This document shows, piece after piece, positions 18,001-24,000 of a stretch of DNA of 64,000 nucleotides. The position numbers are program-made. Numbering within the stretch: position 1 is the first letter of the stretch; every line of letters begins with the position of its first letter. Source of the DNA: a plasmid. The stretch lies in sequence record CP128686.1; one strand, 5' to 3'.

Positions 18001-21000
18001 CCGGCATACCTCTATCACCTCCAGCGTGTCACTGGACGCGATCGGCAAACAGTTTAAAGCGTTCATGGAGACCCTGCCGGAGCCAACGGCGGACATGTTG
18101 CAAAAAGGGCGTGAACTTCAGGCCCGGGAAGAAGCCCGCCGTCTGCAGCACCGGGTTCCCGGTTTCACTAGCATCTGACCGGCGGGTAGCACGATGGAAA
18201 ATCAGGAGCACCTGACGCTGATCCACTCGCTGATCAAAACCCACGCCTTCAACGGTTATACCCTAGTCAGCACGAAGTACTGGCAGACGCCCTCGGTCAG
18301 TGACATTTCCGTGGTCCGGGGGCTGATCCCCCTGACTGACCTGGAGCTGGCCCACCGGCTGGCGGTGGACCCACGAACTATCCGCAAATGGAAATCCGGT
18401 CAGACACAGATGGTGTTCACCACCTGGTGCTGTCTGTGCTGGCTGGCCGGGCTGGGCATGCCGCTGGATAACGAAATCAGCGACTGAAGACGCGACGGTA
18501 GATACGGCGGAAAATATACCGGCGGTAATATCGCCAGCTGCATGTCCAGATATAGGGAAGCTCGTCAAAGTGGGTTAAGAACCAGGTGAGGCTCCGGTAC
18601 GCTACGACAACGGCCCAGATGAACTTACCGATGGCGATGAGGGTGAGGATGACAGTAAATACTGCTGCGATAAATGTAGACATAGTGTTCTCCTTTATGT
18701 CCGGGTTGATGTGCAGGTATTTACTGTTGACGAGTGGACTTAAAGGCCGCTTTTCCGCAAAAAGTGAAAATAAATTCGTTTTTCGCCTTTTATTGCCGTT
18801 ATGTATTGAATAAGACAGAACCTTTGTTGATTACGCATTAATGCCGTTTTTGCAATAATTTTTCACTTTATTTCTTATTTTGTTCGCAATGTCTCTGTTT
18901 CGTTCCTCAGATCCGAAAAAAGGTAGTTCCGGATCTCAGTAAAATCGTATGAATTTTGAGTTGTCTCCACTCCTTCCCTTTTTCAAAATGTTATCTATAA
19001 CTGGCTGAGGAACTTCACTGCTGCGGAGGCTAATTTGGGCGTAAAAATTACAGGTATAGATAAATTGCAGAAACAATTGAAAGAAGTTGAGGAAGCGGCT
19101 GAAACCCTTAACGGTAGTTATCCGGTAAGTTTTGATGCAAACGATCCTGTCAGCATTGAAACTGCGATTCAGGAAGCGTACAGCATGTTGGAGGAGCGAG
19201 CCTCACGGTATGCCGCTAATCCGATGATTAGTCCCATGATCGAGGCCATGAAAGAGGATTTGCGTCAGCAAATTCTGGATAGTGCCGAACAGCAAAGACA
19301 GGAGAACGGGCAGGATGGCAATTGACATTTTTCAGTCACTCAAAAATTGTGTGTATGATTTGCAGCGTGCTGATGCACAGAACTATCAGCAACCACTGAA
19401 ACAACTGGCCCGGCTCCTGAACGACGGTAATCTACAGGCTGTTAACGAACGCCTGACATGTGATGTCGATCTTGACGCCTTTCTGGCGAAAAGTCATGAA
19501 ACCGAATCCAGTATGGCCGGCTCCGCCATCCTGCAGTGGCCTGAAGAACCGCGTGAAATTTTAGGCCTGAAGCTTTTGTTAATCAGGAAAATGTCCGTTA
19601 ACGATAATTTCGCATTCAATTTTTGCCACACGTTTTTCTATGACCGAAAAATTATTGAATCTGTCCGTAAGTTCACATCCTCGTTACTGGTAACTTTTGT
19701 TCGCGACTACCAGCTGTATGTTGAGAATGAATCCGATCCTGATCCGGTAGTAATACGTCAGGTCTCGCGCAAAATTTTTATTGTTCACGGCCATGATAAT
19801 GATGCCCTTCAGTCTGTTGCCCGCTTTATATCCCGGATAGGGCTGGAGGAAATCATTCTCTCTGAACGTCCTGATGGCTCAAGGACTGTAATCGAGAAAT
19901 TTGAAGCGGAGTCAGGAGATGTCAGCTTTGCCATAGTGCTGATGACACCCGACGACAGTGGAAATGCCCTGGCATCTGAAAACACACGACTGCGTGCACG
20001 CCAGAATGTCCTGTATGAACTGGGATATTTCGCGGGTAAGCTTGGGCGCGGGAAAGTGCTGGTACTAAGGAAGGGAGATATCGAAATACCTTCCGATCTC
20101 GCGGGCGTACTCTATACCGAGCTTGATGAGCATGGTGGATGGAAACGCAAGCTGCTGAGTGAGCTGACGTATGCCGGTGTTCCTTTTGACAAGGAAAAAG
20201 CGTTAAGCGCCTGATCCACTTATTGAGTAATAAAAAGGCCGCCAGGCGGCCTTTTTATCAGATCAGTCGTCATTTCCCAGTGCACTTTTGAGTTCTTCCT
20301 GCTCCGGCGTCAGCTCGTTGCCGGACAGCATAACCTTCAGCTTCTCTTCGACTGCTGACCAGTCATCAAAGAACGGACTGACCTGGTCACGCGCAATCCG
20401 GCGATATGCCCCTCTGTGAGAGCTGAAGACACTGGTCTGTAATCGTATCAACAGGTTAACGAGGCCTTCATCAGTGGCAGTTACTTCTCTGACCCATTGC
20501 TTCACGGCTTCATCTGAACTCATGTCTCTCCAGGCGTAGAGATACCCGAGAATTGACTGGCGCAGGAGAAGTTGTTGCTTAAGTTCTGGCTGACTCATGC
20601 GTTCAGCAAATCTGTCACGCAACCGTTCCGTAATATCGCGACTGAAAAGAGCGTCTGAAGGGGAAGGTACTGCATTTTGAGCAAGACCGTGTTCCCAGAT
20701 AAGATCCCGCATAAAATCGGCTATCCAGAACGGCGAAGCGCCAGTAACAATCAGCTTTTCCATCTGCGTGACTGTTCTGGTCTCATCAATATTCTGCATA
20801 TGCTTCAGCAGATGCCGTACAACCTGATTAATGCCAGTTTCACGCAGGGAAAACCATGTGTTACGGATCCGGAAGCGAGTGCTGACCTCATCCGTGTGAT
20901 CGAAGAAAAACTGAATCAACCCAGCACACTCTTCGAAATTACGTTCCTTAATCAGCCCCGGTGTCAGCCTGCTTAGTATATGTTCGAACCAGGTTCCGGA

Positions 21001-24000
21001 CAGACTACCCACACTGTTGATTTTTGAAAGGAGCTTTTCAGAGAGCTGCTGCTGGTTTTCCGGTACGCCTGCCTGCTTAAAAAGCTCATTAAAGAAATCA
21101 GTGGGCAGAACATTCTGGGGTGAGGAGAAGGCATAATAATATCGCCAGTGCGTCAGACTGCTGAGTCGTTTACCGGTCGTCTGGATATGACGAAAATCCT
21201 CACTGACGGGCTCAAAGAGATTCAGATGTGCATCATCATGTCCGCTGATACCGGGGAGCCAGTCTGCAAGCGTCAGAAACGAGTCTGCATTGGATGCCCT
21301 GAACGTCTTCATAGACCTTATAAGCTCCTCCCGGAAGTCTGCCTTTTCTCGGTCAGAAAGCATGCCCTGGCCGGTTTCAATCACGGACCGTTCTGTCAGG
21401 TAATGCTCTGTCCAGTCATACAGGGCCGGGTTTGTCACCCGGATAAGCTGGAGTAGGCACAAATCAGGGAAATACACAAAATCCCGCATCCCCGGATACA
21501 GAAAAATCAGGGAATTAATCGCCTGATGGATCTCCCGTGGCGTCGAAAGTGCGCCACCATACGTATCCGTCACCGCGGCGAGATCCCCTGACATTCCAGA
21601 GTCTGGCGGTTGATTATTAATTTGCTGTTACAGCGCCTCAGCCCGCTGGCGAAATTCATTGCGTAAATCAAAGGCTTCAGGCCGGGGTAATTTAAAACTG
21701 AGCTGAATGATTTTCTGCAGGTAACGGCTGCCATCTTCTATATTCAGCGCATACTCAACGGCATGAGTGATAATCTGCCTGTCATAACAGAGAATATGGG
21801 TAAAGCGGGGCAGATCGGCTACAGCCCTCACCAGTCTGAACACTTCAGCAATCTGGGAAGGTTCAAGTCGATCAAGGTCATCCATAACGACGATGAATTT
21901 CAGATCCAGAGTAACCAGTTGTTTCGCAATTTCAGCCCGCAGTTTTGTTGTCGTTTTTTGATCAACTGCGAGACGACTCTCGGTAAATACTTTTATCCCG
22001 CCTGCTATCCAGTTAATGATGCTGGAAAACTGCCCGATATACTGAACCAGCGGAAGAACGCGCGATGAAGTATCCTGAGCATACTCAATCACTTTCTGAG
22101 CTTCTGGTGACAACAGATATTTACGCCAGAACTTTTTGAAGCCCTTCGGAGGATAGCGTTTTTCCATTTCCTGCTGAATAACCGTGGCAACAGGAAGAAA
22201 GAGCGCTTCAACCGGATCACTGCCACTCAGCCATGGGGAAACATGCAGTACATGCGTGTGTCCATCCTTGTGCTGAAAAAGACTTTTCAGTATCAGATTC
22301 AGAAGGCTTGTTTTACCTGAGCCCCATGCTCCTTCAATTCCGATCACATTTGAAGCTTCCTGTGGAAGGGAAAGAATGGATCGGGAGATATTTTCTGCAA
22401 TATTTCTGAAGCCATATCGATCCTCAGGTACATTCTCAACTGCCGCATCAAGCCCTTTCTGGTTCCACAGTTGCCTCAGTATTTTCATATTACAGATCTC
22501 CGTAAAGGCCGCGCAGCCCGGTCAGGGCCTCCGCCAGCGTACCTTCCGCACATCGCGTGGTAAGCTCCCGGACCAGCGTCTCAAAGGCCTCCGCCGGTAA
22601 AAAAATCCGCAGGCCGTCGATACCGAAAAATCCCTCTTTTGATACATGCCCGGGCGGGGAGAACATCACACGCGCCCCTTGGTGACCGTGCGCCAGGGCT
22701 TCCGGATGGCGGGAATACAGCGTGAACAGGCCCAGCAGTTCGTAGAACGCCTCCCAGCCGTACGGCACCACGAAGTCCTGGCCGGTGATCAGCAGGTGCA
22801 GACGGGGCGTGGTGTACCAGGCCCCCGGGCGTTCTCCGGGGGGCTGGCCGTCAATGCGGATATCAAGGCGCAGGGTGCCGGCCCCGATGGTTTCCGTTAC
22901 GGCAGAAATAACCGGGCGCAGCTCCTGCGCCAGAGCGGTGGCCTTCTGTTCTGTCCAGCCCAGCCCGCGCAGGACCAGAGGGAATATGGTCTTCAGCCGC
23001 GGCAGGGTGAAAATTTCAGACAGGTTAGCGTCGGGAATGTCAGCCAGCTCAAAACAGTCGCTCTCCAGCGGACGCAAAAGATGCTCGGCATACATCTGAT
23101 CCACGACCGGGCGCAGCGCTGCCCGGAACCGGTCAAACTCTTCCATCCAGTTTTCGCCGGCCAGGCGGAAGATCCCCTTCAGGTAGTGGTCATCCACCGG
23201 ACGGTCATGCTCCACCTGCCAGGCCAGCAGGTCACGGGTGATGTCGAGCAGCGTGCCCAGGGCCGGCAGGGTTGCCAGCCTGTTATGCCCGCGCAGGAAG
23301 GCCTCCCTGGTATGAACCAGCATAAAGCGCAGCTCGTCGCGGGAGAGCACTGACGTGCCGAAGGTCTGGCCGAGAATGATATGCCGGTACACAAAGCGTT
23401 ATTGTCGTCTCAGCACAATTCACACGCGTCGTGTACGCTAAGCCTTCATTTTGCTCAGCACAGGACCGCGATCTTATGTTGGTGACTATGACAGACAAAG
23501 AACTCAGTCGGATCAACATCATTCAGTCAGTTATTGAAAAGCGCATGCGTCGTCGCGATGCTGCTCATCAGCTTGCTTTGACCGAATGTCAGACACAGCG
23601 TTTGATTGATGATCAGCACTACAGTGAGTCCATAAAACGGTCGTTTTATGGAGACTGACAATTAATTGCGAAACCATTAACTAGGTAATGGAAGTTGAGT
23701 GGTGTATTTTATTTCCTCCATGGAAAAACTGGATGTTACATCACTCAATCCGCTTACTGAGCTGACCAGCTTTTTGTAAAAACTATCGTAACCCTTCATA
23801 TCTGAAACCACTACCTGAAGAAGATAATCATATTCTCCCGTGGTACGGAAAAAAGTCATCACTTCTGGCATACTATTGACCTGCGAAACGAAATGTTTAT
23901 ACCAGTCATGGCTGTGGTTTTGTGTTTTTATCATCACGAAGGCTGTAAGCGACAAGTTAAGCTTATCCTTACTCAACAGAGCAACCCGACCAGTGATGAT

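Follow-up and report, generated by a model that had tools for sequence, protein, structure and literature searches.

A pifC-pifA operon of the F-plasmid type, with pifA interrupted by a nonsense codon, on a Klebsiella virulence plasmid

Analysis of a 64,000-nucleotide stretch of plasmid DNA (sequence record CP128686.1; hereafter the window, meaning the whole stretch) indicated that the minus-strand locus at 20263-23392 is, as identified from its sequence, pifC-pifA, the operon by which the F plasmid excludes phage T7, located here on a Klebsiella virulence plasmid. We read it, with a probability of about 0.9, as a decayed F-type pif operon on a pLVPK-type Klebsiella pneumoniae virulence plasmid in which pifA has become a pseudogene through a recent nonsense mutation. 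The pif operon of F is a classical one, described decades ago, and nothing in the window is new in kind: the gene is known, the pseudogene is an ordinary young one, and the locus is not a new defence system. The first-pass annotation of this DNA had regarded the pairing of the NTPase with its upstream neighbour as one without a characterised system, which is wrong, since the gene order is the same in the classical F plasmid NC_002483, namely a small open reading frame (ORF), a TIR-domain gene, a 741-amino-acid P-loop NTPase (WP_000698737.1) and pifC (WP_000952217.1).

The N-terminal piece of pifA (286 amino acids, 21631-22488, minus strand) begins with an ATG at 22488, and its 286-codon ORF is closed by a TAA stop at 21630-21628. 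Eleven sense codons come next (CAG CAA ATT AAT AAT CAA CCG CCA GAC TCT GGA), after which an ATG at 21594 opens a 443-codon ORF ending with a TGA at 20265-20263. Both ORFs lie on the minus strand in one frame, and 286 + 1 + 11 + 443 gives 741 codons; the description in the first-pass annotation of two same-frame ORFs split by a TAA plus 11 sense codons and together encoding about 741 amino acids was thus confirmed from the sequence. The 741-codon stretch aligned without gaps to intact 741-amino-acid homologues, so that the in-frame arrangement is not due to chance. Everything downstream of the stop, that is pifA codons 288-741 with the TGA (20263-21627, minus strand), comprises the last part of the KAP domain together with the conserved region at the C-terminus.

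The Walker A motif GAWGSGKTS (amino acids 53-61) and the Walker B motif VVMDDLDR (amino acids 200-207) are both located in the N-terminal piece, which matched the Pfam family KAP_NTPase (PF07693) with E = 3e-40 and 138.7 bits over model positions 1-239 of 293, the curated cut-off of this family being 20 bits. The KAP domain is incomplete in this fragment, which passes the profile cut-off and holds both Walker motifs; the intact allele of the gene scored 148.8 bits over model positions 1-290, corresponding to amino acids 27-331. Codon 287 therefore falls inside the NTPase domain. The profile search on which the earlier KAP NTPase call had been made to depend was thus positive. The PADLOC model for PifA, PDLC02361, matched both pieces, the N-terminal one with 1.2e-120 over positions 2-272 of 720 and the C-terminal one with 7.9e-159 over positions 286-718 of 720, and the two pieces were respectively 92% and 91% identical to F PifA with no gaps. 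No relative of PifA was found in a sequence search of the PDB.

A DNA search of complete E. coli genomes and PLSDB plasmids showed that this stretch carries the annotations "transcriptional repressor PifC" and "KAP family P-loop NTPase fold protein", and some GenBank records label it "pifA: phage T7 exclusion protein". In some databases PifA is named 'exclusion suppressor FxsA', which is a mislabel, FxsA being a different protein. Window positions 19024-23391 were 86.7% identical to the F plasmid DNA. As in F, pTB202, Leclercia and K. pneumoniae p67_2, pifA lies directly downstream of pifC in one operon, and the pifC remnant of the window is joined to pifA by TAA-T-ATG, the N-terminal pifA piece being preceded by a GGAG Shine-Dalgarno sequence (-6.6 kcal/mol). 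A working PifA would be expected to be encoded by one uninterrupted ORF of about 730-750 amino acids, and single ORFs were seen in 6/6 homologues checked; the window has a TAA at codon 287 and consequently carries a pifA pseudogene and not a working member.

Comparison with the typical K. pneumoniae virulence plasmid pDD02280-1 revealed one difference in 5,061 aligned bases, at window position 21628, where pDD02280-1 has the codon TAT. The premature stop (21628-21630, minus strand; Tyr287*) thus differs from the intact allele by a T-to-A transversion, the mutated base 21628 being A on the minus strand and T in the intact allele, which converts Tyr287 from TAT to TAA. The intact 741-amino-acid protein WP_004215174.1 is annotated in pDD02280-1 and pEcl8, and the plasmids pLVPK (NC_005249) and pK2044 (NC_006625) are one base off in the 61-mer around the stop. 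TAT is also present at codon 287 in pEcl8, in F and pTB202 and in Erwinia persicina (89% identity), and its occurrence in the outgroups F and Erwinia makes TAT the ancestral and TAA the derived codon. On these comparisons Tyr287* is a single recent T-to-A nonsense change and a minority, derived state. The suggestion of a recent nonsense mutation, for example CAA to TAA, therefore held as regards the nonsense change, which lies one base in 5 kb from the intact pDD02280-1 sequence, and failed as regards CAA; an origin from CAA was ruled out by the ancestral TAT of F/pTB202, pEcl8, pDD02280-1 and Erwinia persicina. The sense codon that had been looked for at 21628-21630 in homologues was found, as Tyr in close homologues and as Phe, Trp or Tyr in distant ones.

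The distribution of the stop was determined by searching PLSDB plasmids with a 61-base probe centred on it. The site is held by 858 plasmids, among which the exact TAA 61-mer occurs in 33, about 530 Klebsiella-type plasmids show one mismatch and the F-type plasmids show three. Since tblastn placed 583 PLSDB records in the Klebsiella-type identity band, the stop is carried by about 6% of the Klebsiella-type plasmids (33/~580). Among the carriers are p15WZ-82_Vir (K. variicola, China), KP_NORM_BLD_2015_112126 (Norway), BA4946 (India) and pKp_Goe_414-2 (Germany), as well as several E. coli transconjugants, and many of them are conjugative or hybrid plasmids of 270-420 kb. RefSeq has entries for the two pieces, WP_223177214.1 and WP_223177215.1, and the exact 286- and 443-amino-acid proteins were each found on 998 contigs in a collection of 15 billion proteins. 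The 33 plasmids and 998 contigs indicate that the allele is inherited and widespread and is not a sequencing error. Shortened PifA proteins of 112, 132, 193 and 215 amino acids, not flagged as partial, were also observed on long K. pneumoniae contigs, which suggests repeated disruption of pifA in Klebsiella, and the TAA-allele plasmid NZ_CP132624.1 carries an additional ISVsa5 insertion in the region.

Homologues with a natural division into two ORFs at the same boundary had been named as the finding that would speak against a pseudogene; none of those examined, down to 30% identity, was split. Because a scan of genome contigs returned one locus only, that of Erwinia persicina, the diversity of homologues was taken from the tblastn search of plasmids, in which matches down to 31% identity spanned the PifA query in one piece. 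Single ORFs were found in Leclercia (748 amino acids, 42% identity), K. pneumoniae p67_2 (728 amino acids, 38%) and Sinorhizobium (737 amino acids, 30%), and likewise in Erwinia persicina (89%). A natural two-gene architecture was ruled out by these single-ORF homologues at 89%, 42%, 38% and 30% identity. In the alignment the position of codon 287 is occupied by Tyr, Phe or Trp in all homologues examined, and the motifs TPRE, FPDLC, WFEHIL and AWRD are conserved in the C-terminal half. The dN/dS ratio between the Klebsiella and F pifA alleles was 0.13 overall, 0.08 for the N-terminal part and 0.17 for the C-terminal part, and these low values indicate that both halves were formerly under purifying selection as one gene.

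The downstream ATG at 21594 corresponds to the internal residue Met299, which is an ordinary internal residue in F PifA too. The Shine-Dalgarno sequence before it is weak and misplaced (-2.4 kcal/mol), with a GGA directly abutting the ATG, as against -6.6 kcal/mol for the true pifA start and a median of -5.9 kcal/mol for 15 other genes of the window. From these features the 443-amino-acid C-terminal piece appears not to be translated, or would at most be made in traces through inefficient re-initiation, and the main product would be a 286-amino-acid NTPase stub without the last approximately 45 residues of the domain and without the whole 410-amino-acid C-terminal region. In an unrelated KAP defence protein, deletion of the C-terminal region abolishes defence (PMC13552941). 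Loss of PifA-type exclusion in the TAA sublineage is accordingly regarded as the most likely consequence.

The gene upstream of pifA proved to be a 5'-truncated pifC (codons 63-362 plus TAA; 22490-23392, minus strand), which PGAP marks as a pseudogene with a missing N-terminus. The first-pass annotation had described a GC-rich 300-amino-acid protein joined to the NTPase by TAA-T-ATG, and this description was borne out, the ORF having a GTG start; its further view, that the partner was an unknown protein without a recognisable domain, gave way to the assignment as truncated PifC, the product being 85% identical to F PifC (WP_000952217.1, 362 amino acids) over 300 amino acids, without gaps, at residues 63-362. 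Homology to the F and pTB202 DNA breaks off at window position 23391/23392. The truncated gene is abutted by a remnant of the left end of an ISNCY-family element (23390-23500), the 111 bases of which are 100% identical to ISNCY ends in many Klebsiella plasmids; they represent the end and the 5' region of the transposase genes, and the start of the transposase faces away from the pifC remnant. This junction means that the first 62 codons of pifC and all native upstream DNA are gone. The GTG 'start' at 23392, which has no Shine-Dalgarno-like sequence (-2.7 kcal/mol), is a chance product of the junction. The same ISNCY junction was found in all Klebsiella plasmids of the 100% class, and its presence in plasmids with the intact pifA allele shows that the truncation of pifC is older than the nonsense mutation.

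PifC is the autorepressor of the pif operon, and in F the promoter and the pifO operator lie in the DNA upstream of pifC. The RefSeq product name of F PifC is transcriptional repressor. A PifC repressor would be a full-length protein of 362 amino acids encoded beside its own operator and promoter; the window retains residues 63-362 only, with an ISNCY end upstream, and the native pif promoter would thus have been lost. The missing N-terminus of F PifC, MLSQLNLRFHKKLIEALKTRAGRENTSVNALAERFLDDGL, carries a probable ribbon-helix-helix DNA-binding motif and gave a sub-threshold match to Pfam DUF6364 (8e-4). Searches with PifC and its remnant returned no significant Pfam, NCBIfam or PADLOC family and no sequence relative in the PDB; PifC is named as a repressor, yet is structurally uncharacterised. 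A crude scan, which is no proof of silence, detected no sigma-70-like promoter on the minus strand upstream of the pifC remnant, and a literature search on pifC and pifO found nothing relevant. The pifC remnant has a GC content of 60-66% against 46-53% for pifA, a sharp step in composition within one operon (window 22400-23400 versus 20263-22400); the two genes are equally adjacent in F, and the step suggests different origins for pifC and pifA.

The name KAP derives from "Kidins220/ARMS and PifA" (PMC13001434, PMC13552941), and F PifA is an abortive-infection protein acting against T7 (PMC8594841, PMC11990801, PMC13001434). According to the same three papers, which cite Schmitt et al. 1991 and Cheng et al. 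2004, exclusion of T7 and a few relatives depends on the allele of gp1.2, a dGTPase inhibitor, with a contribution of the capsid protein gp10, and the outcome is membrane depolarisation and leakage of nucleotides (PMC8594841, PMC11990801, PMC13001434). In F, PifA is set off by the phage proteins gp1.2 and gp10, and the infected cell dies before phage is released. PifA is also described as lacking the transmembrane helices typical of KAP proteins (PMC13001434). F PifA (WP_000698737.1) is the orthologue of the window gene: the intact Klebsiella allele has 741 codons, 91.4% amino acid identity and the same Walker motifs, and the pifC-TAA-T-ATG-pifA junction and the convergent TIR gene with a 96-amino-acid ORF downstream are common to both. 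The window gene differs from it in having TAA at codon 287, which truncates the protein within the KAP domain, and in its host, a Klebsiella IncFIB/IncHI1B virulence plasmid. The nearest relative, intact Klebsiella PifA (WP_004215174.1), is accompanied by the same truncated pifC and ISNCY junction, with one base differing in 5,061; it is the majority allele with TAT at codon 287, the allele of the window occurring in about 6%. F PifC has the same position and the same coupling to pifA, while the window copy is without the first 62 residues and the native upstream DNA. QatA of the Qat system, EF_KAP and their relatives (PMC13552941) also consist of a KAP domain followed by a long C-terminal region needed for defence. 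PADLOC and NCBIfam QatA models gave weak matches to the window NTPase; these are nevertheless different families, the QatA match of 44 bits lying far below the NCBIfam equivalog cut-off of 600 and reflecting shared KAP-domain similarity only, and PifA differs from them in acting as a single gene under PifC control.

Decay of the operon has proceeded in two steps. In the older one, common to the Klebsiella-type copies seen, an ISNCY element entered pifC with loss of 62 codons and presumably of the promoter and operator DNA; in the younger one, confined to about 6% of the Klebsiella-type plasmids, the T-to-A change turned Tyr287 into TAA inside the KAP domain. It is very unlikely that the two ORFs instead encode a working split PifA, in which an NTPase piece ending at the TAA assembles with a C-terminal piece initiated at Met299 by re-initiation. 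Both ORFs are intact and in frame, the ATG lies 33 nucleotides past the stop, and RefSeq lists both pieces as proteins; however, a single base separates the sequence from the intact allele prevailing in this family of plasmids, no homologue among those examined is split, the break falls inside the KAP domain with 12 residues missing, and the ATG has no usable Shine-Dalgarno sequence and is internal in F too. Synthesis of full-length PifA by read-through or suppression of the TAA is still less credible. Nothing specific speaks for it beyond the low level of read-through that occurs at any stop codon, and TAA is the most efficient bacterial stop. A tRNA gene search of the window found none, hence no suppressor there, and the codon was originally an ordinary Tyr codon, on which grounds recoding or suppression was rejected; no recoding signal is known in any pifA, and none was searched for. 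An error of sequencing or assembly in a gene that is really intact has a negligible chance of explaining the TAA, because the distance of only one base from the common allele, which would favour an error, has to be set against the same base in 33 independently sequenced complete plasmids and the exact fragments on 998 contigs.

A different question is why the stop has spread, to which a selected loss of function is an unlikely answer. Once pifC and the operator had been lost, unregulated pifA could have been costly or could have aborted useful infections or transfers, and Y287* would have spread with conjugative hybrids. The occurrence of the allele in several countries, in K. variicola and in E. 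coli transconjugants, often on conjugative or hybrid plasmids of 270-420 kb, is in line with such selection, and the other shortened PifA proteins and the one extra insertion sequence hint at repeated disruption. On the other side, about 94% of the Klebsiella-type copies retain an intact ORF, and hitch-hiking on a successful plasmid can account for the spread. Rather less probable again is the proposal that Tyr287*, either as a knockout favoured by selection or as an NTPase stub with a dominant-negative effect, is a mark of internationally spreading conjugative or hybrid Klebsiella virulence plasmids; if it were true, the sensitivity of the host to T7-like (Autographiviridae) phages, therapeutic ones included, would change, and the intact and broken alleles would form a natural isogenic pair for probing PifA in Klebsiella.

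Several points weigh against reading the locus as a decayed operon with a nonsense-inactivated pifA. The loss of function of the TAA allele is deduced from sequence, and the next ATG lies only 33 nucleotides beyond the stop, a distance at which some re-initiation would be possible. The TAA allele is too young for secondary decay, its fragments being still exact on about 1,000 contigs, and relaxed selection is therefore not demonstrable. After the loss of pifC and the promoter, even the intact Klebsiella pifA may not be expressed or active. An Lrp/AsnC gene (23677-24138) lies upstream of the pifC remnant on the same strand with no terminator predicted between them, and it is possible that read-through from this gene still supplies pifC-pifA transcripts.

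The window represents a segment of a pLVPK-type virulence plasmid with iucABCD-iutA (1065-9100), rmpA2, vapBC, a DUF3800 gene, the TIR gene, pifA, the pifC remnant and a tellurite-resistance cluster, and 15.3 kb of p1-pV-hybrid-1 is identical to the window save for a one-base indel. The rmpA2 gene (14246-14623, minus strand), which encodes a regulator of the mucoid phenotype, is shortened to 125 amino acids by a run of 8 A at 14274-14283; in NZ_CP068707.1, which is otherwise identical, the run has 9 A and RmpA2 has 211 amino acids. The window thus contains two inactivating changes of one base each. A 237-amino-acid ORF at 15040-15753 (plus strand) consists of an IS3-type transposase N-terminus fused to a C-terminal fragment of a restriction endonuclease; in an identical record, PGAP labels each part as the remnant of a pseudogene. 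The DUF3800 gene (17045-18178, plus strand; 377 amino acids, Pfam 2.8e-6) and small ORFs of unannotated function (18194-18683) lie between vapBC and the TIR gene, a block that occurs in Klebsiella plasmids and is absent at the equivalent place in F and pTB202.

Convergent to pifA is a TIR-domain gene (19282-20214, plus strand) matching the Pfam CAP12/Pycsar TIR family with 6e-37 and the PADLOC candidate PDC-S35 with 8e-66. It is overlapped by a 96-amino-acid ORF (19035-19325, plus strand), and the pair is found beside pifA in F and pTB202 also; Erwinia persicina has an ORF of like size and position. At distant pifCA loci an AAA ATPase or a NACHT protein occupies the place of the TIR gene, which looks like a variable slot for defence genes next to pifA. 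Between the convergent pifA and TIR genes, a hairpin rich in GC with an A-run on one side and a T-run on the other, AAAAAGGCCGCCTGGCGGCCTTTTT (20232-20256), was read from the sequence and is probably a two-way terminator; a consensus scan of the window did not include it among its listed sites.

For discovery the locus means little, given that it is a textbook pif operon with a plain nonsense change and that its pieces already stand as two RefSeq proteins. Defence-system annotators that score the pieces separately may nevertheless call PifA present where the gene is broken. Our literature search returned no paper that connects pifA with the virulence plasmid of Klebsiella or deals with an influence of PifA on how sensitive hypervirulent Klebsiella is to phages. 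The TAT/TAA polymorphism, a difference of a single base, offers a handy marker for a sublineage of these plasmids, and the intact and broken alleles are a natural pair for studying the effect of PifA on phage sensitivity in hypervirulent Klebsiella.

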